Assembly: GCA_046541615.1 (NCBI GenBank) | Contig: JBKHCX010000056.1 | Coordinates: 1-15,322, forward strand | DNA from: Puniceicoccaceae bacterium | Lineage (GTDB): Bacteria; Verrucomicrobiota; Verrucomicrobiia; Opitutales; Puniceicoccaceae | Reading direction: 5' to 3' | Length of the DNA: 15,322 nucleotides | Shown here: in pieces, positions 2,047-15,322 of the stretch | How the letters are laid out: every line of letters begins with the position of its first letter | How positions within the stretch are numbered: position 1 is the stretch's first letter | Notes under the pieces: model-generated | The model's input: only the letters and a program-made list of their open reading frames with translations | Told to the model about the DNA's origin: nothing | Database searches by the model: none | Position numbers and translations under genes: made by a program

Positions 2047-5000
2047 ATGAACTTCGAACATCCATCCCCCCTCTACACGGCCGACCAGGAGCACGACGCC
2101 TGCGGGGTGGGCTTTATCGCCAACTCCAACGGCCGCCGTTCCCACTGGATTCTGGAGCAGGCGATCCAGGGGCTGATCAACCTCGCCCACCGGGGCGCCA
2201 TCGACGCCGATGCCGTCACCGGGGACGGCGCGGGCGTCCTCACCCAGATCCCCCACGCGATTTTCGAAGAGTTCCTCAGGCAGTCCGGCGAAGGCCCCGT
2301 CGCCCGGGAGGATCTGGGGGTCGGCATGGTCTTTCTCCCCCGCACCGACGAGAAGGAAACGAGGCACGCCCGGCGGATCCTCGAAACCGCCGTCAAACGC
2401 GAGGGGCTCCGCTTCGTGGCCTGGCGGGCGGTGCCCGTCGAGCCGGGCTGTCTCGGCAAGAAGGCGGAACAGACCCGCCCCGGCATCGCCCAGGCGTTGG
2501 TCGGGCGGCCCGGCGGGATGTCCCCCGACGCCTTCGAGCGCGCGCTCTTCCTCGCCATGCGGACGTCCATGAAGGCGGCGGCGGACGCGAACCTGACCGA
2601 TTTCTACGTGGTGAGCTTCTCCCACCGGACGATCACCTACAAGGGCCTGCTCAACGCCCCGCAGGTGCGCGAGTTCTTCCCGGATCTGCGCTCGCCCGCC
2701 TTCGAGACCGCCTTCGCGATCTTCCACCAGCGCTTCGCCACCAACACCCTCCCCGACTGGAAGAAGGCCCAGCCCTACCGCATGCTCGCCCACAACGGCG
2801 AGATCAACACCATCAAGGGCAACCGCAATCTGATGCGCGCCCGCGAGTTCTCGTCCAACCACGGCGTGTGGGGCGACCGCTACAAGGACCTGAGCCCGAT
2901 GATCCAGCAGGACATGTCGGACTCGACCAGTCTCGACAACACCCTGCAGCTCCTGAGCGTCGGCGGGCGCACCTGCCTGCACGGGCTCGGCATGATGATC
3001 CCCCCGGCCTGGGAGAACGATCCCCACCTGCCCGCGAAGGTGCGCGACTTCTACCGCTGCCATTCGACGATGATGGAGCCGTGGGACGGCCCGGCGGCGG
3101 TGGCCTTCACCGACGGGCGCTTCGTCGGCGGTCTCCTCGACCGGAACGGGCTCCGCCCCTGCCGCTACAAGATCTACGGGGACGGGACCGTCGTCCTCGG
3201 CTCGGAGGCCGGACTCATCCGCGACTGGGGTTCGCCCGTGGTCGAGGCGGGCCGGCTCGGCCCGGGCCGGATGATCGCCATCGACATCGGGGAGAACCGC
3301 ATTCTCCGCGACGCGGACATCAAGAACCATCTCGCCGACCGCGAAGACTACTCCGGCTGGTGCGCGCGCTCCCTCATCCCGCTGGAGAACCTGCTCGCCG
3401 GCCGGGCGGAGCGCTCCCCCGGAACGACCCTGCCCGCCGACCGGATCGCCCCGCTGCGGGTCTGCTTCGGCTACAGTTCCGACGAAGAGAACCTCATCCT
3501 GCGGCCGATGATCCGGACGGGCATGGAGGCCGTGGGCTCCATGGGCGACGACACGCCCCTGGCCGTGCTTTCGCGCCGCAACCGTCTCCTCTTCACCTAC
3601 TTCAAGCAGCTTTTCGCCCAGGTCACCAACCCGGCCATCGACTCCCTGCGCGAGCGCTCGGTCATGTCGCTCAACGTGAATCTCGGGGGTCGGCTCGGCC
3701 TGTTCGAGCCCCTCGGGGCCGACCACCCGTTCCTCACCCTGGAATCGCCCCTTCTTTTCCGCCGGGAATTCGAGGCGGTCTGCCAAAGCGATGTCTTCCG
3801 CGGCCGGACGGCCCGGATCGACGCGACCTTCCCCGTGTCCGGCGGAGCGGACGTCCTCGAGTCGGAGATCAACCGGATCGTGTCCGAGGCGGCCGGGGCC
3901 GTGAAAGACGGAAAGGCGCTGATCGTCATCTCCGACCGGGAGACCTCCGCCGACCGCGCGCCCGTCCCCTCCCTCCTCGCCACCGGGGCCGTCCACCAGG
4001 GGTTGATCCGGGCCGGTCTCCGCCTCCGCTGCGACCTGATCACCGACACGGCCGAGGCCCGCGACGTCCACCAGTTCGCCTGCCTTCTCGGTTTCGGGGC
4101 GAACGCCGTCCACCCGTGGCTGGCCGAGGAGTTGACCGCGGGGGTGATCGCGAACGACGGGGATGAGCCGGTTCTGCCGGAGATGGCCCTGGCCAACTAC
4201 CGGAAGGCGGTGGACAAGGGCATTCTGAAAATCATGGCGAAGATGGGGATCAGCACCCTCTACAGCTACCAGGGCGCCGAGATCTTCGAGGCCATCGGCA
4301 TCAGCTATCCGGTCGTGCGCCAGTGCTTCCGCGGGACCGCCTGCCCCATCAACGGGCTGGGCTACCGCCAGATCGCGGCCGAGACCCTCGCCCGGCACGA
4401 AAAGGCGTACCGCTCGGCGGACGTGGGCCCCTGGGACGAGGGCTACTACAGCGTCGTCAAGCGCGGCGAGGCCGAGTTCCACGGGTGGAATTCCAAGGTC
4501 GTCGGCGGTATGAACAAGATCTTCCGGGGCGATCCGCGGAAATTCGACCGCTTCCTCCCCTTCAAGGAGGCCAGCGAGCACCACCAGCCGCAGTCGGTCC
4601 GCGACCTGCTCAAGTTCCGCTTCGTCAACAAACCGATTTCGCTCGAGGACGTGGAGCCGGTCGAGGACATCCGGCGGCGCTTCACCACCGCGGGCATGTC
4701 CCTCGGCGCGATCTCCCCGGAGACCCACGAAACGCTCGCCCTGGCGATGAACAGCATCGGCGGGAAATCCAACTCCGGCGAAGGGGGCGAGGATCCCCGC
4801 CGGTTCCGGATCCGCCCCGACGGATCGAGCGCCAACAGCGCGATCAAGCAGGTCGCCTCCGGGCGCTTCGGCGTGACGGCCGCCTACCTGGCCAACGCCC
4901 GCGAGATCGAGATCAAGATCGCCCAGGGCGCGAAACCCGGCGAGGGGGGGCAGCTCCCCGGTCACAAGGTCACCGAACTGATCGCCGAACTGCGGTTCAG

Positions 5001-6585
5001 CGTGCCCGGCGTGACCCTCATCTCCCCCCCGCCCCACCACGACATCTACTCGATCGAGGACCTCTCGCAGCTCATCTACGACCTCAAGCAGGTCAACCCG
5101 CGGGCCAAGGTCTGCGTGAAACTCGTCGCCTCCTCCGGCGTGGGCACGATCGCCGCCGGGGTCGCCAAGGCCTACGCGGACGTGATTCTCATCGCCGGGC
5201 ACGACGGGGGCACCGGCGCCTCGCCCGTTTCCTCGATCAAGAACGCCGGCTCCGCCTGGGAGATCGGCCTGGCCGAGGCCCACCAGGTTCTGCTCATGAA
5301 CGATCTCCGCAGCCGGGTCGTCCTCCGCACGGACGGCGGGATGAAGACGGGGCGGGACATCGTCATCGCCTCCATTCTCGGGGCCGAGGAATACAACTTC
5401 GGCACGGCGGCCCTCATCGCCACCGGGTGCGCGATGTTCCGCGTGTGCCACAAGAACACCTGCCCGGTGGGCGTCGCGACCCAGCGCGAGGATCTGCGCA
5501 AGAAGTTCAAGGGCAAGCCGGAGAACCTGGTGAACTATTTCAACGCGATCGCCGAAGACGTCCGCCGGATCATGGCGAACCTCGGCGTCCCGGCGGTGGA
5601 CGAGCTGGTCGGGCGGACCGATCTCCTGGAGCAGATCCGCGATCCGAAGAACCCGAAGACCGAGACCATCAATTTCTCGGGCATCCTCCACAACCCCGAT
5701 CCGAGCGGCGTCCTCTCCCGCGTCCACACGAGGGAGCGCAACGACCGCATCGGCAACGACGGGAGCTGCGACGACCAGATCCTGCAGGAGGCCATCGAGA
5801 CCGTCACGCACCTGGCCCCGGAATACTCCGGGGAATTCCGGGTGAAGAACATCCACCGGAACATCGGCACGCGCCTCTCCGGCCAGATCGCCTACATGCA
5901 CGGGAACAACGGAATGCCGCCGGGCACGATGCACCTGACCTTCACCGGGAGCGCGGGCCAGAGCTTCGGCACGTTCCTCGTCCAGGGGGTCCGGCTCCAC
6001 CTCTTCGGGGAGGCGAACGACTACGTCGGCAAGGGGATGAACGGCGGCGAGATCATCGTGCGCCCCCGCGAACGCGAGACCTTCGCCTGGGAGAAGAACA
6101 TCATCATCGGCAACACCTGCCTCTACGGAGCGACCGGGGGGCTCCTGCTCGCCGCCGGACAGGCGGGGGAGCGCTTCGCCGTGCGCAACAGCGGCGGAAC
6201 CGCCGTCGTCGAGGGTGTGGGCGACCACGCCTGCGAGTACATGACCGCGGGCGCGGTCGTGGTGCTCGGAGACACCGGCACGAACTTCGCGGCCGGCATG
6301 AGCGGCGGCCTCGCCTTCGTGTTCGACCGGGAGGAACGCCTCGACAGCCGCCTCAACCCGGAAATGGTCTCCCTGGCCCGCCCCGACTCGCCGGAGGAGA
6401 CCGAATCGCTGCGCGAACTGGTCGGACTGCACGCCCGCCTAACCGAAAGCCCGCACGCGCGGCGGCTGCTTGCGGACTGGGAGAACACCCTGCCCCGCTT
6501 CCGCAAGGTGGTCCCCCACCGCGCCGACGGCGTGCCCGAGCCCTTCCTGCGCTTCGGCGAGACCCTGAAAGGCGTCGCGACCTAG
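2047..6585 (+). CDS. gltB: Glutamate synthase large (alpha) subunit, 1512 aa
   Basis: A short propeptide precedes the Ntn-amidotransferase Cys (HDACGVGFIA). Central and FMN-domain motifs are present (NSGEGGEDP, KIAQGAKPGEGGQLPG, ISPPPHHDIYSIEDL). The 3Fe-4S cysteines are present (CAMFRVCHKNTCPVGVATQ). The C-terminal beta-helix GXGXG region is present (GNTCLYGATGG, AGERFAVRNSG). The ORF opens at 1927, but ATG 2047 gives the expected N-terminus. Confidence 0.95.
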   Translation: MNFEHPSPLYTADQEHDACGVGFIANSNGRRSHWILEQAIQGLINLAHRGAIDADAVTGDGAGVLTQIPHAIFEEFLRQSGEGPVAREDLGVGMVFLPRTDEKETRHARRILETAVKREGLRFVAWRAVPVEPGCLGKKAEQTRPGIAQALVGRPGGMSPDAFERALFLAMRTSMKAAADANLTDFYVVSFSHRTITYKGLLNAPQVREFFPDLRSPAFETAFAIFHQRFATNTLPDWKKAQPYRMLAHNGEINTIKGNRNLMRAREFSSNHGVWGDRYKDLSPMIQQDMSDSTSLDNTLQLLSVGGRTCLHGLGMMIPPAWENDPHLPAKVRDFYRCHSTMMEPWDGPAAVAFTDGRFVGGLLDRNGLRPCRYKIYGDGTVVLGSEAGLIRDWGSPVVEAGRLGPGRMIAIDIGENRILRDADIKNHLADREDYSGWCARSLIPLENLLAGRAERSPGTTLPADRIAPLRVCFGYSSDEENLILRPMIRTGMEAVGSMGDDTPLAVLSRRNRLLFTYFKQLFAQVTNPAIDSLRERSVMSLNVNLGGRLGLFEPLGADHPFLTLESPLLFRREFEAVCQSDVFRGRTARIDATFPVSGGADVLESEINRIVSEAAGAVKDGKALIVISDRETSADRAPVPSLLATGAVHQGLIRAGLRLRCDLITDTAEARDVHQFACLLGFGANAVHPWLAEELTAGVIANDGDEPVLPEMALANYRKAVDKGILKIMAKMGISTLYSYQGAEIFEAIGISYPVVRQCFRGTACPINGLGYRQIAAETLARHEKAYRSADVGPWDEGYYSVVKRGEAEFHGWNSKVVGGMNKIFRGDPRKFDRFLPFKEASEHHQPQSVRDLLKFRFVNKPISLEDVEPVEDIRRRFTTAGMSLGAISPETHETLALAMNSIGGKSNSGEGGEDPRRFRIRPDGSSANSAIKQVASGRFGVTAAYLANAREIEIKIAQGAKPGEGGQLPGHKVTELIAELRFSVPGVTLISPPPHHDIYSIEDLSQLIYDLKQVNPRAKVCVKLVASSGVGTIAAGVAKAYADVILIAGHDGGTGASPVSSIKNAGSAWEIGLAEAHQVLLMNDLRSRVVLRTDGGMKTGRDIVIASILGAEEYNFGTAALIATGCAMFRVCHKNTCPVGVATQREDLRKKFKGKPENLVNYFNAIAEDVRRIMANLGVPAVDELVGRTDLLEQIRDPKNPKTETINFSGILHNPDPSGVLSRVHTRERNDRIGNDGSCDDQILQEAIETVTHLAPEYSGEFRVKNIHRNIGTRLSGQIAYMHGNNGMPPGTMHLTFTGSAGQSFGTFLVQGVRLHLFGEANDYVGKGMNGGEIIVRPRERETFAWEKNIIIGNTCLYGATGGLLLAAGQAGERFAVRNSGGTAVVEGVGDHACEYMTAGAVVVLGDTGTNFAAGMSGGLAFVFDREERLDSRLNPEMVSLARPDSPEETESLRELVGLHARLTESPHARRLLADWENTLPRFRKVVPHRADGVPEPFLRFGETLKGVAT

Positions 6586-7345: not shown

Positions 7346-8545
7346 CTACCGGAAGCCCTTGGGCATCGGAATCTTGATCCCGCGCCGCAGGAAGGTCGGT
7401 TTGTCCAGGTCCACTTCGTTGTATTCATCGACGGCCATGCGGCCGAAGAGTCCGCGCTCGTTGTCCTCGAGGAGGGAGTCGAATTCGGTCTGCACCCGGA
7501 CGGGACCCGCCGTGGCGCGTCTGCCGTCGAGCTTGGAGGCGTGCACCTCGACCGGGCGGGAGCGGTAGAGGGGTTCCGGCTGCGACGAAAGATCCGTCCG
7601 CGCCAGAACGGTGACCTCCAGGTCCGCGCCGAGGGCGGGGTCCTCCCAGAACCCGACCACGGCGTCCTCCCGCGAATCGAAGAGTTTGGTCACCCCGGCG
7701 GCCAGCTCCGCGAAGGCGGCGGCGGACAGAGCGCCCGCCGAACCGATGCTCACCAGCAGGCGGTCGGCGCGCGCCCGCTCGATCCCCGGCGAGCGAAGGG
7801 GGCATTCGAAAATGCCCTTCACCGCGGCCGCCGCCCCCTCCGCCAGGGGCACGCGGGCGGTCGAGAAGACGATCCGGCTCTCCGGCCCTTTCAGGGCGGC
7901 GCGGAAGGTGGCCAGATCCACCGACATCTTTCCGGGCCGGAACAGGGGACCGGCCAGCGCGGTGACCGCCCGCGACATCCATTCGTCGGAGGCGTCGAAT
8001 ATCCGGTCGGCCCGGTCCGATTCGCCGGCCTCCTGGAAGAGGAGATCGTTGGGCAGCTCGATGACGCAGTCGGCCGATTTACGGATGGCGGCGAGCGCCT
8101 CGCGGGCGAGCTTCGCCGGCCGCCGCCCCTCGAATTCGAAAGGGGTGGATACCACGGCGACCGTCGGACAACCGGTCTCGCCGATCAGGCCGGCCATCAC
8201 CGGAAGCGCGCCCGAGGCGCACCCGCGCCCGAGACACCCGACCAGGACGACCAGTTCGCCGCCGCCTAGGGCCGCGGCGATGAGAGGCCGGTCGCTTTCG
8301 GCGGCGAGACGGCCCATCTCTCCGTCCCCGCCGCAGCCGAGCCCGCGCACGAGAGCCTTCCCCAGCCGGACCGAGCGGATCTCCGGATACCGGTCGAGTT
8401 CGCGGGCGTCGGTGTCGAACCCGACGGGCACGATCTCCGGCCAGGCCGTTCCGCGAAGCCGGTCAACGACGCCAAGCGCCCCCCCGCCCACGGCCACGAG
8501 CCGAACGCCGGGTCTCTCCGCGTCGTTGCCGATGCCATCCTTCAT
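7346..8545 (-). CDS. ftsZ: Divergent FtsZ homologue (399 aa) with atypical nucleotide-binding motifs
   Basis: It occupies the last position of the dcw cluster directly after ftsA, with a TGATG stop/start overlap at 8543-8547. It is collinear with FtsZ: VRLVAVGGGALG, GFDTDAREL, VRGLGCGGDGEMGR, TPFEFEGRR, LPNDLL, FRPGKMSVD. The C-terminal DLDKPTFLRRG matches the conserved FtsA-binding peptide. The ORF runs up to 9088, but that part overlaps ftsA out of frame and is Arg/Pro-rich. Confidence 0.85.
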   Translation of the reverse strand: MKDGIGNDAERPGVRLVAVGGGALGVVDRLRGTAWPEIVPVGFDTDARELDRYPEIRSVRLGKALVRGLGCGGDGEMGRLAAESDRPLIAAALGGGELVVLVGCLGRGCASGALPVMAGLIGETGCPTVAVVSTPFEFEGRRPAKLAREALAAIRKSADCVIELPNDLLFQEAGESDRADRIFDASDEWMSRAVTALAGPLFRPGKMSVDLATFRAALKGPESRIVFSTARVPLAEGAAAAVKGIFECPLRSPGIERARADRLLVSIGSAGALSAAAFAELAAGVTKLFDSREDAVVGFWEDPALGADLEVTVLARTDLSSQPEPLYRSRPVEVHASKLDGRRATAGPVRVQTEFDSLLEDNERGLFGRMAVDEYNEVDLDKPTFLRRGIKIPMPKGFR

Positions 8546-9750
8546 CACGTCCCCCGCAGGAATCGCGTCACCTTGCCGACCACTCCGGCGGGACGCTGGT
8601 TGTTCTCCCGTTTCTCGGCCTGGCCCTCGAGGGCGTAGTGGAGCACTCCGAGGACCGTGCTGTACTCGGCCGCCCGCAGCTCGTCGGCCACCCAGTCGGG
8701 GTTGCCGGCGAACCGCGCCGGGAAGCCGAAGACCCGCTCCGCCAGATCGGCGCACCGCTCGAGGCGGGCGCCGCCGCCGGTCAGGAGCGCGCGGACGGCC
8801 CCCGACTTGAGCCGGGAGGCGCCGCACTCCTCGCGGATCAATTCGAAGAGTTCCTCCAGCCGCACTTCGAGAATGCGGTTGATGGACGAGGCGTAGAGGG
8901 ACTTGTCGCCGATCTTCAGGTCCCCGTAGAGGTGCAGGGTCCGGCCCTGGTCCTCGGGCAGCACGGTGGCCGCCCCGTGGCGGAGCTTCAGATCCTCCGC
9001 GCTGTCGCGCACGATCCGCAGGCCCACGGAAAGGTCGTTGGTCATGTGCTCGCCGCCGACCGGAATCGATCCGGTCCGGACGATGCATCCCTTGTCGTAG
9101 AAGGCGTAGTCCGTGGTGCCGCGGCCGATGTCGATCACGAGGCAGCCGGATTCCTTTTCCTCCTCGGTGGCGACCATGCAGGCGGAGGCCACGCTGGAGA
9201 CGATGACATCCTCCACCTTGATGTTCTGGCTGTTGACCGCGTGGATGTGCTCGGCGACGGCCTGGGAGTCGGCGTGGAGCAGCCAGTAGGTGACCGCCAG
9301 CTCCTCCCCCCGGAAGCCGGCCGGCTGCTCGACGACCCGCCCGTCCAGCTCGTAGTGGTTGCGGATGAAGTGGATGTAGAGCCGGTCGGCGCCGATCTCC
9401 TTGCTCTTGGCCTCGGCGTTCACGCGGTCCACGTCGGCGCGGGTCACGCGGTTGTCCGGGCTCCGCACCCGGATCCGGGCCGGGTGGGACAGGCCCTGGA
9501 GATGGGAACCGGCGATCGCCAGGTAGGAACTCTCGATATTGGTCCCGGCGCTGGTCTCGGCGCGGTCGAGCGCCTCCCCCACCCCGTCGCTGACCTCGCG
9601 GAAATTGAGAATCCGGCCCTTGGAAACCCCGCGCGATTCGACCTCGGCCTTGCCGATGATGTTCAGGCTCTGGTCCTCGTAGATCTCACCGACCAGGACT
9701 TTGATTTCCCGGCCTCCGATTTCGATGGCTGCTACGACTTTACCCGACAT
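8545..9750 (-). CDS. ftsA: Cell division protein FtsA (actin-like ATPase), 401 aa
   Basis: The N-terminus AAIEIGGREIKVLVGE is the phosphate-1 motif. DIGRGTTDYA is phosphate-2. LTGGGARL is the adenosine motif. The C-terminal amphipathic tail is GVVGKVTRFLRG. A strong Shine-Dalgarno lies upstream. Confidence 0.95.
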   Translation of the reverse strand: MSGKVVAAIEIGGREIKVLVGEIYEDQSLNIIGKAEVESRGVSKGRILNFREVSDGVGEALDRAETSAGTNIESSYLAIAGSHLQGLSHPARIRVRSPDNRVTRADVDRVNAEAKSKEIGADRLYIHFIRNHYELDGRVVEQPAGFRGEELAVTYWLLHADSQAVAEHIHAVNSQNIKVEDVIVSSVASACMVATEEEKESGCLVIDIGRGTTDYAFYDKGCIVRTGSIPVGGEHMTNDLSVGLRIVRDSAEDLKLRHGAATVLPEDQGRTLHLYGDLKIGDKSLYASSINRILEVRLEELFELIREECGASRLKSGAVRALLTGGGARLERCADLAERVFGFPARFAGNPDWVADELRAAEYSTVLGVLHYALEGQAEKRENNQRPAGVVGKVTRFLRGT

Positions 9751-9755
9751 CGGTA

Positions 9756-9761
9756 CTCCTT
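9756..9761 (-). promoter_or_regulatory. Shine-Dalgarno sequence AAGGAG for ftsA
   Basis: The minus strand reads gtgaaAAGGAGtaccgATG, with a 5-nt spacer to ATG 9750. This is the clearest ribosome-binding site in the window. Confidence 0.8.
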
Positions 9762-9848
9762 TTCACAGATCGGCCTCCGCATGTCGAGACCGCGGAAGTT
9801 GATTTGCGGCCATCGCGGCAACCGTCTTCGCTCTCCGAGCTCCGCCGA

Positions 9849-9932
9849 GTCAAGAGCACGAGGCCCTACAGGAATGCAAATTCCTAAATTTTCCTTGTTT
9901 CGGAAAAACGGGTAGGGCCGCGTGCTCTTGAC
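9849..9932. repeat. 84-nt imperfect palindrome with two nested hairpins (predicted three-way junction) in the ftsQ-ftsA spacer
   Basis: Outer arms 9849-9869 and 9912-9932 pair at 20 of 21 positions. The inner hairpins are AGGAAT-gcaa-ATTCCT (9870-9885) and TTTTCC-ttgtttc-GGAAAA (9889-9907). The inner 42 nt are AT-rich (15/42 G+C by hand count). The structure is certain from the sequence. The function (RNA element, protein site or REP-like repeat) is unknown. Confidence 0.5.
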
Positions 9933-10108
9933 GGCCATAACCCGGCTTGTCCAGCGTCTTGTCGCCCGTAGCTCGCTGAGGGAGAGGAAAGCCCCATGCG
10001 GAGGAGGCAGGGCGGCGGCTGTTGCGCGCGTGCCGCAGCCCAATCCCCGAGAACGGAAAAACGGGAGGAATTTCCATCCTGGCTCCCCATACCGATGGCT
10101 GCGCTCGC

Positions 10109-11020
10109 TCACCCTGCCGGATCCTCCCCGTCCAGAAGCACCGGCACCGAGTCGTCGAAACGCAGATCGACCCGCTCGATCCTGTCGATGCCCCGCTCGC
10201 CGGTCAGCGTCAGGATGTCCTGCAGGCGCATCAACTGGTCGGAGAGTCCCTCCGTCGCGAAAAGCGCTTCCCGCACCCGGGTGGACCGGACGCGGATCGT
10301 GGAAAAGGCGGCGGCCGGATCGGGGTCGTAGAGGGAGAGATCGACGATCCGCCACGACCGGAAGACCTCCGGAAAGCCGCTGCGGGCGAGATCGACGAGT
10401 TCGGCGACCGTGTGGAACCCCGGCACCGGAGCGTATCCGCCGGGTCGCTCGACCAGCGTGACCCCGGTGAGAAAGGGGAGCCGCGAGACCTCGGCCGGTT
10501 CGAGGCCGATCCCGGGAAAAACCGATCCGTCCCCCGCCACGAAGAGGGTGATCCGGCTGCCGGAGGCGTCCCGGGTGAGCAGCCGCAGCACCGGCTTGTG
10601 CTCCGAGATGCGCACTTCGAGGGTCTCCGGAAACCGGCGGCGGACGACGCACTCCCGGACCTGGGGATGGGCGGCCAACCGTTCCCGCAGCCGGAAGATA
10701 TCCGTCTGGAGGAGGGTCGCCCCCTCGGCCAGGACCAGCCGGTCCGCCAGCCATTCCTCGTCGAGCGTGCCGTCGGTCTCGAAAGCGACCTCCTGTATCC
10801 GGAACTCCTGACCGCCCCCCAGAATACGCTCCGGCTCGAAAAGGAGAAGGTAGGTCAGGAAGATGATCGCGATCGAAAAGCAGACCGCCCCCGCCCACAC
10901 GAGAAGGCTGCGCCCGCGGGTGCGCCCGACCAGACCGGAGGAGCGGGGCACTTTCTGCTGGATGCTCTTCCACGAGCGGACCCGGACCGGACCGGGGGGC
11001 GGGGATTTCCTGCGCATCAT
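10109..11020 (-). CDS. ftsQ: Cell division protein FtsQ (bitopic, POTRA domain), about 303 aa
   Basis: It has a basic N-terminus, then a single TM helix (LLVWAGAVCFSIAIIFLTYLLLF), then a POTRA-like region (FRIQEVAFETDGTLDEEWLADRL...RRRFPETLEVRISEHKP). It lies between ddl and ftsA. ATG 11020 overlaps the ddl stop (ATGA), and GGAG lies just upstream. The adjacent ATG at 11017 is equally possible. The ORF extension to 12088 overlaps ddl and was rejected. Confidence 0.85.
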   Translation of the reverse strand: MMRRKSPPPGPVRVRSWKSIQQKVPRSSGLVGRTRGRSLLVWAGAVCFSIAIIFLTYLLLFEPERILGGGQEFRIQEVAFETDGTLDEEWLADRLVLAEGATLLQTDIFRLRERLAAHPQVRECVVRRRFPETLEVRISEHKPVLRLLTRDASGSRITLFVAGDGSVFPGIGLEPAEVSRLPFLTGVTLVERPGGYAPVPGFHTVAELVDLARSGFPEVFRSWRIVDLSLYDPDPAAAFSTIRVRSTRVREALFATEGLSDQLMRLQDILTLTGERGIDRIERVDLRFDDSVPVLLDGEDPAG

Positions 11021-11946
11021 CCTCTCCGGCGGTGGAAACGGTTCAGGGCCGGCCGGACGAGTTCGGCGGCGAGATCCTCGAACGACAGACCGCGGCAGGC
11101 CGCGCTCTTCGGCAGGAGACTCTCGGCGGTCAAACCCGGAATGGTGTTGATTTCGAGAAAACAGGGCCCCTCGTCGTCGAGGCGGAAATCCGCCCGGGCG
11201 AAGTCGCGGCAGCCGCACACGGCGAACACGGTCTCGGCCCACCAGCGGACGACCGCCTCCACGCCGGGATCGAGCACCGCGGGCCATCGGTACTCGGTCA
11301 GGCCGGCCGTGTACTTGTGCCGGTAGTCGTAAACGCCCCCCTGCGGCAGGATTTCGACCACGCCCTGCCCGATTCCGTTGAGAAGGCCGATCGACAACTC
11401 GCGGCCGTCGATGAAGGTTTCGAGAATCCACCGCTGGTCCGGGAGGGCGTCGAGCCGGCGGAGCAACTCGCCGATCCCCCGGACCACCGCCAGGTGGGTG
11501 CTGCTGCCACCTGCGACCGGCTTGATCACGATGCGGTCGCCGAGACGGTCGCGGATCCGGCCGGCGTCCGGCGCCTCCCCCGGCTCCAGGACGATCGACT
11601 CCGGCACCCGCACCCCCGCGGCGGCCGCCGTCTTCTTCGTGCGCTCCTTGTCCATGCACAGAGCGCTGGATATCGAATCCGATCCGGCGTATTCGAACCG
11701 GCCCCGTTCGAGAAGGGTCTGGAGCGCGCCGTCCTCTCCGAACTCGCCGTGGAGGGCCGGGAAGACCACGCTTGCCGCAGGATCGAGGAAGGCGGGCAGC
11801 GCCGCCTCGCGCAGCTCGACGGCGTTCACCGGGAAAGACTCCTCCAGCGCGCCGATCAGCGCGGCACCCGTCTTCAGGGAGACATCGCGCTCTGGACCGA
11901 CGCCTCCGTAGAGAACGGTGACCGGGGTATCGTCCTCGGGGATCAT
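11017..11946 (-). CDS. ddl: D-alanine--D-alanine ligase, 309 aa
   Basis: Motifs seen: VLYGGVGPERDVSLKTG, ALHGEFGEDGALQTLLE, IKPVAGGSSTHLAVV, FLEINTIPGLTAESLLPKS. ATG 11946 gives an N-terminus matching E. coli Ddl and shares one base with the murC-murB stop (TGATG). Confidence 0.9.
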   Translation of the reverse strand: MIPEDDTPVTVLYGGVGPERDVSLKTGAALIGALEESFPVNAVELREAALPAFLDPAASVVFPALHGEFGEDGALQTLLERGRFEYAGSDSISSALCMDKERTKKTAAAAGVRVPESIVLEPGEAPDAGRIRDRLGDRIVIKPVAGGSSTHLAVVRGIGELLRRLDALPDQRWILETFIDGRELSIGLLNGIGQGVVEILPQGGVYDYRHKYTAGLTEYRWPAVLDPGVEAVVRWWAETVFAVCGCRDFARADFRLDDEGPCFLEINTIPGLTAESLLPKSAACRGLSFEDLAAELVRPALNRFHRRRG

Positions 11947-14183
11947 CACGGAACGGTGCGAAAGGAATCGGTCGGCGGCGGAACCTCGGCCGGATTGCCC
12001 GGAGAGAGGAACCGCACCTCCGGCTCGAGCCAAACGCCCGAGCGGAGCCGCACCCGCTCGCGAATCTCGGAGAGGAGCGCGAGAACATCGGCGGCGCGGG
12101 CGTTCTTGTCCGGCAGAAGGAAATTGGCGTGTTTTTCGGAGACCCGGACCCGCCCGAGGCGATAGCCTTTGAGCCCGGCTCGGTCGATCAGACGGCCGGC
12201 CGAATCCCCCTCCGGATTGCGGAACATGCAGCCCGCGCTCGCCCCGCCGGGCTGGCTCCCCCGCCTGCGGATCGAGTACTCCCGCATCCTCTGCCGGATC
12301 ACTTCCGGATCCTGCCTTTCCGTTCCCTCAAACACGGCGCGGATTATGCAAAGACCCTCCAGGCCAGGGCAAGAACGATAGCCGAAGGAAAGGTCGCTCC
12401 GGTCGAAGCACACGAGCTTTCCACCCGGGTCGAGGGCCTCCACCCGCACGGCCCGGTCCCCGATCCATCCACCCATGGCGCCCGCGTTCATGCGGAGGCC
12501 GCCGCCCACCGTACCGGGGATCCCCTCCAGGAATTCGAATCCCGCGAGGCCCTGTTTCGCCGCCGACCGGGCCAGGGCGGGGAGGGCGCAGCCGGCGCCG
12601 GCGGCGATCCGGAGCGAACCCCCTTCCGCCGCTTCCACCGACTCCCAGGCCGGACCTTTCAGGTGGACGACGAGACCGTCGAACCCCTCGTCCGACACCA
12701 GGAGGTTCGACCCGTTGCCGAGAAAGACGACGGGGATCCGCAGCATCCCCGCCGCGCGGAGCAGCCAGCGCAGGGCCGCGACCCCGTCCGGCTCCGCGAA
12801 CGCCGCGGCCCTGCCACCGATCCGCAGCGTACAGGCCCGTTCGAGCGGCTCGCCGCCGCGCACGGTTCCGGCGGCCAGATTGGCCTCGGCCAGGCGCAGC
12901 AACGCGGGCACCGGCCGGCCGCCCTCCCCGGCGAGGGCCGCCAGAACCGAGGCCCACTCGTTCGCGTCGCCCGCCCCGACGAAGGCGAACGTGCCGACCG
13001 GCCCGGCCCCCTCATCCTCCCCGAATCCGGGGAAGTCGCCCAGGCCGCGTATCCGGGACACCCGCACGCCCCCGGCCTCCAGCCCGGCCTCGATCCGCGC
13101 CAGGGCGTCCCCGCCGCCGGTAGCCTCTCCCGCGCCGTAAACGGAGTGCAGCCCCACCTCGGCGAGCCCCGAGAGCGCCTCGACGAACTCTCCCGCGAAA
13201 CGGGTCGTGCGGCTGAAGCGGTGCGGCTGGAAGTACACCCGCAGGGGCGCCGGGAAATCCCCTCGGGCGAGCCAGCCGAGAAAAGCCGCCACCTCGCGGG
13301 GATGGTGGGCGTAGTCCTCGACCACGGCGAAGCGCCCGCTCCGGGCGTGGATGGTCTGCCGCCGCCATACGCCGGGGAACCCGGCCGCCGCGTCGCCTCC
13401 GGCGGGCCGTCCCGCGGCGGCCGCGAAGGCCGCGCGGGCGGCGGCCTCGTTCGTCGCGGCAAAATCCGCCACGTCCACCGGAAAGGCCGTCCGCCCCGGG
13501 GAGTCCGGCCACTCCGGAGCGCCGTCGCCCGGGGCCGGCTCCGGATGGACCACGGCGGACCGCGTCCGCCCGGCGAGCCCGGCCCAGGTCGCCCGGATCG
13601 CCCCCGCGTCCCGGTAGCGGTCGGCGTGATCCCAGTCGAAATTCAGGAACAGCGTCACCTCGGGGGAGAAACCGTCGATCGTCCCGTCGCTCTCGTCGAT
13701 CTCGGCGACCAGCCACTCCGCCCCGCGGTTCCGGGCGGGCGGCAGACCGGCCCCGGGCAGCCCCCCGATCACGTGGTCGGCGGCCCATCCCTCGCGCCCG
13801 GCCAGGTGCGCGATCAACGCGGTGGTCGTGGTCTTTCCATGACTGCCCGCCACGGCCAGAAGCTTCCGCCCCGCCGCGATCCGGGCCAGGAGTTCCCCCC
13901 GGCGGAGGACGACCGGCGGCGGGTCGTTCTCCGCGAGACGCCGGCGCAAGGGGTGGTCGGCGGAGATGGCGCTGGATACCACTAGGAATCCGCACCGCGC
14001 CGCCGCGCGTGGCTCCGGCTCGAGCGCGACCCCTCCCTCCCGCAGCAGGCGCTCGGCCCGCGGCGTAAGGGCGTCGTCCCACCCGCTCACCTCCGCTCCG
14101 CCCTCCTTCAGAAAGAGGGCGAGCGGGAGCATCCCCATCCCGCCGATCCCGAGCAGGAAAAACCGTTCGCCGCGCACGTTCAC
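11946..14183 (-). CDS. murC/murB: Bifunctional fusion: UDP-N-acetylmuramate--L-alanine ligase (MurC, N-terminal) and UDP-N-acetylenolpyruvoylglucosamine reductase (MurB, C-terminal), about 745 aa
   Basis: MurC part: FLLGIGGMGM, AGSHGKTTTT, EIDESDG, NFDWDHADRY, EDYAHHPREV. MurB part begins around nt 12850: TLRIGGRA, LGNGSNLLV, GIPGTVGGGLRMNAGA, FGYRS, ASAGCMFRNP, VSEKHANFLL, WLEPEVRF. It is one uninterrupted frame. The proposed GTG start at 14183 overlaps the murG stop (GTGA), with GGGAGG upstream. GTG 14177 is an alternative. The ORF extension to 14363 was rejected. Confidence 0.9.
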   Translation of the reverse strand: MNVRGERFFLLGIGGMGMLPLALFLKEGGAEVSGWDDALTPRAERLLREGGVALEPEPRAAARCGFLVVSSAISADHPLRRRLAENDPPPVVLRRGELLARIAAGRKLLAVAGSHGKTTTTALIAHLAGREGWAADHVIGGLPGAGLPPARNRGAEWLVAEIDESDGTIDGFSPEVTLFLNFDWDHADRYRDAGAIRATWAGLAGRTRSAVVHPEPAPGDGAPEWPDSPGRTAFPVDVADFAATNEAAARAAFAAAAGRPAGGDAAAGFPGVWRRQTIHARSGRFAVVEDYAHHPREVAAFLGWLARGDFPAPLRVYFQPHRFSRTTRFAGEFVEALSGLAEVGLHSVYGAGEATGGGDALARIEAGLEAGGVRVSRIRGLGDFPGFGEDEGAGPVGTFAFVGAGDANEWASVLAALAGEGGRPVPALLRLAEANLAAGTVRGGEPLERACTLRIGGRAAAFAEPDGVAALRWLLRAAGMLRIPVVFLGNGSNLLVSDEGFDGLVVHLKGPAWESVEAAEGGSLRIAAGAGCALPALARSAAKQGLAGFEFLEGIPGTVGGGLRMNAGAMGGWIGDRAVRVEALDPGGKLVCFDRSDLSFGYRSCPGLEGLCIIRAVFEGTERQDPEVIRQRMREYSIRRRGSQPGGASAGCMFRNPEGDSAGRLIDRAGLKGYRLGRVRVSEKHANFLLPDKNARAADVLALLSEIRERVRLRSGVWLEPEVRFLSPGNPAEVPPPTDSFRTVP

Positions 14184-15322
14184 AACCCCTCCCGGAGCGC
14201 CCCCCCGGGCTCCTCCCGTTTCCCGGCGGCGGCGCTCTCGGCCAGCTCCTCCAGATCGGCCACCAGATCCTCCTTGCGGTTGGAGTCCTCGATCAGTTCG
14301 AGGTTCGTCCGGATCCGGTCCAGCAGGCCGGGATCCCGGAGAAAGGCCACCACCTCGTCGCACAGGCTATCAAGGTAATCCTGCTCGACCACCACGCACC
14401 CCCCCCGCGCCTCGAAATAGCGGGCGTTCTCCCTCTGGTGCCCGTCCGCCGCGTACGGATACGGAACCAGGATCGAGGGCAGGGCGCAGCGCGTCAATTC
14501 GGCAATGGCCCCCGCCCCGGCGCGCGACACCGCCAGGTCCGCCGCCGAGAGCACCAGGTGCATCGCATCGCAAAAGCCCACCGAATGGCAGCGCCGGACG
14601 CAGCCGGACGAATCCTTCTCCTCCAGCACGCCCTCCGCGCCCTTGCCCAGCCCGCGGACGCAGTAGATATCGACCCCCTCTCCCAGAAGCTTCCGGTAGT
14701 GCCGGTCCACCCAGTCGTTGAGCGCCGACGCCCCCTGGCTGCCGCCGCACACGACGAGCAGGAATCCATCGCGGGAAAGCCCCAGTTTCTCGCGGGCCCC
14801 GCGCCGGGAAATCCGCCGGAACTCGCGGCGGACGGGGTATCCGAAATGGCGGACGGCCCCGGGGGAGACCCCGGCCAGGCGCACTCCCGTCGGCAGGTAC
14901 ACCCGCCGGGCGAAACGCTTGAGCAGCCGGATCGCCCGCCCCGGCCTGCGGTTCGCCTCGTGGAGGGCCACCGGCAGCCGCAGGAGCCGCGCCGCCAGCA
15001 CGATCCCCACGGAGAGAAAGCCGCCGAAAGCAAGAACCAGATCCGGGTTCTCCCGGCGCAGCAGCCGCCGGCCGGAAAGAAGCCCCTTGACCGACCCGCT
15101 GATAAAGCGGCCCAACTCCCCCGGGCGCCTGCCGAAGGCCGCTCCCGGCAGCCGTACGAAATCCAGATGGGCGTACTTGCGGACGAGGCGCGAATCGACC
15201 TCCTTGTAGCTGATCAGCAGCGAGCACCGGTGACCCCTCGCCAACAGCTCCTCCGCGACCGCGATTCCAGGGGCAAGGTGCCCGCCCGTGCCCCCGCACG
15301 CTATCAGAAATTTGCGTCCCAT
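14180..15322 (-). CDS. murG: Undecaprenyl-PP-MurNAc-pentapeptide-UDP-GlcNAc GlcNAc transferase MurG, 380 aa
   Basis: The N-terminus ACGGTGGHLAPGIAVAEEL is the MurG G-loop. The C-terminal half carries VCGGSQGA and RAGAGAIAELT. The ATG is the last three bases of the window (15320-15322), so the gene is complete but its upstream context is missing. Confidence 0.93.
   Translation of the reverse strand: MGRKFLIACGGTGGHLAPGIAVAEELLARGHRCSLLISYKEVDSRLVRKYAHLDFVRLPGAAFGRRPGELGRFISGSVKGLLSGRRLLRRENPDLVLAFGGFLSVGIVLAARLLRLPVALHEANRRPGRAIRLLKRFARRVYLPTGVRLAGVSPGAVRHFGYPVRREFRRISRRGAREKLGLSRDGFLLVVCGGSQGASALNDWVDRHYRKLLGEGVDIYCVRGLGKGAEGVLEEKDSSGCVRRCHSVGFCDAMHLVLSAADLAVSRAGAGAIAELTRCALPSILVPYPYAADGHQRENARYFEARGGCVVVEQDYLDSLCDEVVAFLRDPGLLDRIRTNLELIEDSNRKEDLVADLEELAESAAAGKREEPGGALREGL

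Follow-up and report, generated by a model that had tools for sequence, protein, structure and literature searches.

The 84-nt palindrome between ftsQ and ftsA in the window (the whole 15,322-nt stretch of DNA analysed) is very probably an inverted doublet of GTAG-REPs, part of a ∼301-nt mosaic repeat cluster that was inserted into a short ancestral ftsQ-ftsA spacer. The doublet is REPIN/BIME-like and is a tail-to-tail dimer in the nomenclature of Di Nocera et al. (PMC3733652). Since the palindrome is one copy of a small repeat that is scattered through the genome, we read it as an ordinary insertion rather than a regulator dedicated to the ftsQ-ftsA site. An earlier note on this DNA had offered five hypotheses (a processing element, an attenuator, a small RNA, a protein-binding site and a REP/MITE-like insertion); our analysis supports only the last.

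The palindrome and its setting in the dcw cluster

The window carries a dcw cluster on its minus strand (Table 1), and gene calls on the identical contig L001 leave the 358-nt ftsQ-ftsA spacer as the only junction of the cluster at which neighbouring genes do not overlap. The overlaps are 4 nt for murG/murC-murB, 1 nt for murC-murB/ddl, 4 nt for ddl/ftsQ and 1 nt for ftsA/ftsZ. These calls, with the coordinates of the ftsQ stop and the ftsA ATG, confirm the earlier description of a 358-nt spacer in a cluster whose other junctions all overlap by 1–4 nt. The relatives found through FtsA are MAGs that carry the names Puniceicoccaceae, Puniceicoccales or Verrucomicrobiota. Two further assemblies, GCA_046542055.1 (contig L001) and GCA_964591155.1 (contig L002), have an FtsA identical to that of the window, and the L001 and L002 ftsQ-ftsA spacers match that of the window save for three substitutions (three in L002), one of which is the mismatched stem base of the palindrome (C·C in place of C·U).

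The murC and murB sequences form a single gene of ∼736–746 amino acids, in which Mur ligase domains are followed by FAD_binding_4 and MurB_C, so that the domain order in the window is MurC, then MurB. This fusion is found throughout this Puniceicoccaceae clade (window, L001 1843-4080, L006, L007, L009, L010, L019 and L020), and Verrucomicrobium spinosum has a known MurB/C fusion enzyme. The FtsZ protein (7346-8545, minus) is divergent, with VAVGGGALGVVDRL as its N-terminal glycine-rich motif and a Pfam Tubulin match that covers model positions 49–187 only (E = 1.5e-18).

Table 1. Genes of the dcw cluster and parts of the ftsQ-ftsA spacer in the window, as interpreted here
Feature	Coordinates	Strand	Remarks
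murG	14180-15322	minus	
fused murC-murB	11946-14183	minus	
ddl	11017-11946	minus	
ftsQ	10109-11020	minus	303 aa, POTRA domain; stop 10109-10111
ftsA	8545-9750	minus	401 aa; ATG 9750-9748
ftsZ, divergent	7346-8545	minus	
ftsQ-ftsA intergenic spacer	9751-10108	minus	358 nt
degenerate left module of insert	10037-10102	minus	66 nt closest to ftsQ
REP unit A	9912-10036	plus	GTAG 9912-9915; begins GTAGGGCCGCGTGCTCTTGAC; tail ...TTGCGCGCGTGCCGC; body enlarged by nested inserts
module B	9944-10011	minus	nested insert of ∼68 nt in unit A
core REP doublet (84-nt palindrome)	9849-9932	–	two inverted REP heads, GTAG inward, 42-nt spacer between
doublet spacer	9870-9911	–	AT-richer (35.7% G+C); mini-hairpins 9870-9885, 9889-9907
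REP unit B	9806-9869	minus	GTAG 9869-9866; begins GTAGGGCCTCGTGCTCTTGAC; ∼33-nt nested loop insert; tail CGCGATGGCCGC
ancestral ftsA leader	9751-9798	minus	48 nt; TCGACA 9782-9787; ribosome-binding site AAGGAG 9756-9761

Recomputation reproduced the paired arms, the AT-rich interior and the two inner hairpins that the earlier note had described. The arms (9849-9869 and 9912-9932; 21 nt each) pair at 20 of 21 positions (95% complementary), and the inner 42 nt have a G+C content of 35.7%, compared to 68.6% for the whole window. A three-way junction that includes both inner hairpins forms on either strand; the minimum free energy is -47.0 kcal/mol for the minus strand and -48.2 for the plus strand, with fold z of -9.5 and -9.2, respectively, and 0 of 200 shuffled sequences fold equally well. 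The 84-nt palindrome is therefore real, but it makes up just the centre of a larger palindrome of ∼230 nt (∼9806-10036), imperfect and composite, which sits in turn within ∼301 nt of inserted DNA.

A strong hairpin on both strands could suit an attenuator or terminator of transcription, or a separate small RNA encoded by one strand or the other, but we regard these as extremely unlikely. There is no U-tract after the hairpin, as an intrinsic terminator would have (the minus strand continues UCGGCGG and the plus strand GGCCAUA), and a terminator scan of 9500-10400 returned one weak site, outside the hairpin and at chance level. The window had no Rfam match at gathering thresholds, and at permissive E-values 9650-10250 gave only noise with E > 1. 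No sigma-70-like promoter was found by a promoter scan of 9500-10400, which bears out the earlier note on this point, and relatives do not keep the element at this locus.

A palindromic protein-binding site or an internal ftsA-ftsZ promoter is very unlikely as well. AT-rich GGAA/TTCC palindromes do recur at 9870-9907 and 10054-10077, and some other bacteria are known to have promoters internal to the cluster for ftsAZ. However, in addition to the lack of a sigma-70-like promoter, these motifs are part of a dispersed repeat that is found at unrelated loci, and they are missing from the ftsQ-ftsA junction of relatives. By eye, the 42-nt spacer holds no convincing match to an IHF-site or sigma-54 consensus.

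An alternative minus-strand frame of 413 codons (9732-10973) is open through the whole ftsQ-ftsA spacer, including the AT-rich core. This frame lacks gene-like features and was judged to be spurious at 69% G+C.

Most parts of the insert have counterparts at other loci. For the core doublet (9849-9932), homologous doublets are found in L016, L018 and L027. Spacer positions 73-254 (window 10036-9855), which include unit A, are 81% identical over 183 nt to L016 3099-3280, and the 21-mer that begins unit A also heads units in L015, L016 and L018. Unit B is 86% identical to L018 6611-6674 and resembles the reverse complement of the long left arms of L015 and L018. The motif GTTTTYCGAAAC of the doublet spacer recurs in other copies, but the sequences of the hairpins and their loops vary among copies, and the GNRA/UUGC loop that the earlier note had stressed is not conserved. 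Module B is found in L016, is missing from the otherwise homologous units of L015 and L018 3454-3515, and stands alone at L019 16874-16940 (88% identity). The left module (10037-10102) has no significant match outside L019; its GGATGGAAAT..TTTTTC piece recurs at the start of the L019 insert, and its AT-rich patch at 10054-10077 repeats CGGAAAAACGGG of 9901-9912.

Both window units are long-loop variants, each with an insert of ∼33 nt like (G/A)TAGCTCG...AGAGCGA in its loop, and module B adds to the upstream unit (in operon sense) only. Folded alone, neither unit does better than shuffled sequence; the 20/21 pairing between the arms arises because both REP heads belong to the same subtype. On both arms, one GTAG unit appears to be nested within the loop of another.

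The stretch 10066-10103 resembles ftsA codons 7–18 (9700-9732; L008 3017-3050; L010 3018-3056), and the first ∼40 nt past the ftsQ stop, read in the ftsQ frame, give AAIGMGSQD, similar to AAVEIGSQD at the FtsA N-terminus of relatives. An origin of the spacer by tandem duplication of the ftsA 5′ end was considered, but the nucleotide score lies within the shuffle null; the likeness of 10066-10103 to the start of ftsA may be chance or the relic of an old duplication.

Copies of the repeat at unrelated loci

The repeat family has the unit consensus GTAGGGCCNCGYGCTTGCGCGATGGCC. Its basic unit, as in GTAGGGCCTCGCGCTTGCGCGATGGCC and GTAGGGCCGCGTGCTTGCGCGCGAGCC, is a 27-nt GTAG-tagged hairpin (folded as single-stranded DNA), in which the GTAG is unpaired and a 9-bp stem with one bulge closes a 4-nt loop. 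Basic units thus fit the short imperfect palindrome of GTAG-tagged REPs (stem of 5–13 bp, loop of 2–20 nt), whereas the loops of the two window units are enlarged by nested inserts. Units are found singly, as inverted doublets with a spacer of ∼41–47 nt and in tandem arrays, and are always intergenic. The GTAG tag is found on both window arms and on most units of L015, L016 and L018, with GTGG and GCAG as variants, and the doublet spacer starts with GTTTTYCGAAAC and usually holds two small hairpins.

With nhmmer, regex/fuzzy matching and BLAST, the count of units came to at least 14, spread over five intergenic regions in 24 kb of the sister MAG GCA_964507815.1 (contigs L015, L016 and L018), among them a tandem array at L018 3190-3560 with three doublet-plus-linker units and a period of ∼124 nt. 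The genes beside these other copies are unrelated to cell division: the copies lie near a type III PKS-like gene paired with a TlyA-like (FtsJ/S4) methyltransferase gene, def paired with an RND pump, a P-type ATPase gene with an esterase (erythromycin esterase) gene, and genes for DUF1622 and OsmC proteins.

Further copies are present in the window's own genome, where the earlier note had proposed to look for them. We sampled this genome through its AcrB ortholog, on contig 2 of GCA_964591155.1 (L027), the assembly that also contains L002. A complete doublet is found at L027 6962-7048 (nhmmer E = 4e-20), between a gene with a prepilin-type N-methyl domain (a weak Pfam hit) and a hypothetical gene, and a remnant is found at L027 8471-8526, upstream of the RND operon, where L016 likewise has a copy. 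Thus, the window's own MAG has three sites among the ∼34 kb examined. Such copies at unrelated intergenic sites, including sites in the same MAG, together with the 57-nt spacer of close relatives, speak against the locus-specific RNA element that had been suggested.

The long helix of the doublet is kept in six copies, with a conserved C/Y mismatch and a few compensatory pairs. The consensus helix has 21 pairs, of which four are still paired despite changes on both sides; an example is the change of A-U to G-C in L027, where the tags are CTGC/GCAG instead of CTAC/GTAG. The L018 doublets fold with z = -4.3 and -5.9 (compared to -9.5 for the window), and the L016 stems are shorter and mismatched; the window copy, at 20/21, has the best stem of the family.

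In a genome collection of species representatives, from which the window's own assemblies are evidently absent, the exact two-arm pattern had 0 matches. The single arm GTAGGGCCNCGTGCTCTTGAC matched three more contigs of GCA_964507815.1, a sister MAG and also the assembly of L005. A single-arm scan of JGI metagenomes gave one match only, and this lies in a coding gene. The exact 21-nt arm GTAGGGCCGCGTGCTCTTGAC occurs once in that coding gene, at L014 1415-1435 and L017 6188-6208, without a partner arm; we took the matches in the JGI metagenome and in the Betaproteobacteria MAG (L017), which are intragenic and in the same gene, to be due to chance.

Several contigs end within or beside the repeat. 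The Logan contigs L003 and L004, which encode an identical FtsA, start at 9834, 29–30 nt inside the outer end of the repeat, and a start ∼30 nt inside a repeat is expected for Logan k = 31 unitigs. A 1.5-kb esterase contig from another sample (L025) has REP units at both ends. These breaks agree with a multi-copy repeat. The erythromycin-esterase gene of L018 is flanked by repeat clusters on both sides (3190-3560 and 5160-5570), and the erythromycin-esterase contigs of near relatives in public assemblies are mostly just 1.5–4.4 kb, which suggests that the repeats fragment assemblies around this gene.

The ftsQ-ftsA junction in related genomes

Most relatives have much shorter spacers at this junction. 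Spacers of 83, 41, 53 and 48 nt are found in L006, L008, L010 and L012, respectively, in which FtsA protein identity is 74–81%. In the sister clade, whose ftsA genes are mutually 98–99.8% identical in DNA, the spacer is 57 nt in L020–L023 (ftsA DNA identity ∼93.5%) and 279 nt in L019 (93.9%), while in L005 (93.3%) it is a scaffold N-gap. The leader at 9751-9798 aligns with the whole right part of the L020–L023 spacers, and also with L005, L019 and more distant relatives; in L005, the sequence beyond the gap restarts with the conserved right boundary, TTCCGCAG. Because the spacers of relatives are short and the 48-nt leader aligns throughout, a short ftsQ-ftsA spacer is ancestral, and the window holds ∼301 nt extra between the ftsQ stop and the leader. 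The insertion leaves the leader and its ribosome-binding site intact.

Within the leader, TCGACA lies ∼35 nt upstream of the ftsA ATG in the window, L005, L008, L010 and L019–L023, and is replaced by TGGACA in L006 and L012. TCGACA is thus present in most of the examined relatives with an FtsA identity of 74–95%. The hexamer is similar to a -35 box, but it lacks an acceptable -10 downstream.

The palindrome is thus missing from the junction in L020–L023 and in the more distant L006, L008, L010 and L012, and the content of L019 is different, which is not what is expected of a dcw RNA element specific to this locus; the comparison of relatives' spacers for which the earlier note had called speaks against such an element. 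The L019 insert (8178-8456) matches the window insert in the first ∼60 nt only, and the remainder is not above noise. The same L019 stretch holds other GTAG-headed palindromes, e.g. GTAGCCCGCTTGTCTTCAGCAGACGGGC, with no match among the other loci examined. Indeed, the junction shows the presence/absence variation that is expected of mobile REPs, being 358, 279 or 57 nt long where ftsA is 93.5–99.8% identical, and it looks like either a repeated target, or hotspot, for such elements or a polymorphic site. The insert is found in every examined assembly that spans the spacer of this species (window, L001 and L002), and its left 60 nt are common to L019, so the insertion is not very recent.

The variation in presence would also fit a MITE derived from an IS, or a different foldback element, not of the RAYT type, with only a likeness to REPs, as would the long, imperfect inverted termini of ∼64 nt (9806-9869 versus the outer part of 9912-10036). 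Moreover, no transposase, RAYT or otherwise, was found in the ∼200 kb of loci examined, where a tblastn search with E. coli RayT gave a best E of 0.2. We nonetheless consider a MITE unlikely. Inverted termini are present, but no target-site duplication is seen on comparison with the empty 57-nt site; the 27-nt GTAG hairpin unit is also found alone and in tandem arrays, a pattern that characterises REPs and BIMEs rather than MITEs; and no parent IS is known. The REP reading has points against it too: the negative transposase search in these ∼200 kb, the lack of both a target-site duplication and a clean insertion boundary at the junction, the atypical units of the window and their inward-facing GTAG ends.

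Relation to known repeats and consequences for the operon

The window family fits the superfamily of GTAG-tagged REPs. The verrucomicrobium Opitutus terrae is highly enriched in them, including GTAG-17 to -20, and in general their tag lies outside a stem of 5–13 bp, their dimers are 20–100 bp apart and clusters are frequent (Di Nocera et al. 2013, PMC3733652). A dimer with GTAG inside is tail-to-tail, and the spacers of dimers may hold stem-loops (PMC3733652). The window family is alike in its unpaired terminal GTAG, its short, GC-rich, bulged stem-loop, its extragenic location and its multiple copies, which form singletons, inverted dimers and clusters, and O. terrae belongs to the same class, Opitutae. 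The family differs from the O. terrae REPs in having its own sequence, such that the two are likened by described features and not by consensus sequence; the loops of the window units, in addition, hold large nested inserts, and the host is an uncultivated member of the Puniceicoccaceae. GTAG REPs have thus already been described in Opitutus terrae, and the present family is a further member with its own sequence.

In Pseudomonas fluorescens SBW25, REP doublets form hairpins and are found inserted into or beside each other (Bertels and Rainey 2011, PMC3116915). As in these REPINs, two inverted REPs and a spacer make up one long hairpin in the window, the spacer is less conserved than the arms, compensatory changes and tandem arrays are seen, and elements are found inserted within or beside others. 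The polarity is the opposite: the GTAG tags of the window doublet face the spacer (tail-to-tail), whereas the SBW25 doublets are classed as head-to-head (PMC3733652).

Two further systems resemble the window element in part. The BIMEs of E. coli share the mosaic of REPs and linkers, the variable tandem repetition and the location between operon genes; their sequences are unrelated, and no IHF-site consensus was recognised in the window spacer. REPs in such a location are known to stabilise the upstream mRNA, as at malE-malF. The Correia (NEMIS) elements of Neisseria are likewise small palindromic insertions, but as MITEs they have terminal inverted repeats of 26 bp as well as a TA duplication, neither of which the window element shares. 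Correia elements are co-transcribed with flanking genes, and their RNA hairpin is a substrate of RNase III.

We propose that a RAYT-type (IS200-like Y1) transposase mobilises the family in the form of single-stranded DNA hairpins, as has been suggested for other GTAG REPs. The element would have landed between ftsQ and ftsA because this is the only non-coding stretch of a translationally coupled cluster, and the dcw mRNA would read through it. Any effect on the dcw mRNA is one that we infer, and it would be incidental: if co-transcribed, the hairpin might stop 3′ exonucleases or serve as a target of RNase III, as is known for REPs and Correia elements. Such behaviour is a generic property of REP doublets, which the window copy may share.

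A stronger version holds that the doublet, although mobile in origin, was co-opted as an RNA element of the dcw mRNA, in which an RNase III site or a 3′-exonuclease barrier would uncouple, or set the ratio of, the ftsQ (and upstream mur) mRNA relative to the ftsA-ftsZ mRNA in this species only. Several observations agree with co-option: the hairpin on the mRNA-sense strand is very stable (-47 kcal/mol), its stem is the best in the family, and all examined assemblies of the species with a complete spacer contain it. Between the element and ftsA the scan detected no promoter, which makes read-through transcription plausible, and the endonuclease sensitivity of RNA hairpins from REP dimers has been discussed (PMC3733652). 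Nevertheless, sister strains with an ftsA 93.5% identical manage with a 57-nt spacer that lacks the element, the same kind of doublet is found at unrelated loci, and the loop and spacer sequences are not conserved. We therefore hold co-option to be an outside chance, and favour the ordinary insertion of a GTAG-REP doublet.

The palindrome carries a caution: when the only gap in a cell-division operon holds a hairpin with z = -9.5, a riboregulator comes readily to mind, yet this one is a generic repeat, and one search of related genomes is enough to expose it as such. For uncultivated Puniceicoccaceae, the analysis records a family of GTAG-REPs that includes doublets, tandem arrays and nested inserts, and so extends the description from Opitutus terrae. 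The repeats also break metagenome assemblies at predictable points, as at the L005 N-gap, the starts of the Logan contigs and the 1.5–4 kb esterase contigs. Finally, the junction, polymorphic at 57, 279 or 358 nt, offers a natural setting in which to ask whether REP insertion alters the expression of an essential operon, and if co-option were true, the sister strains with the empty 57-nt spacer would be the natural control.
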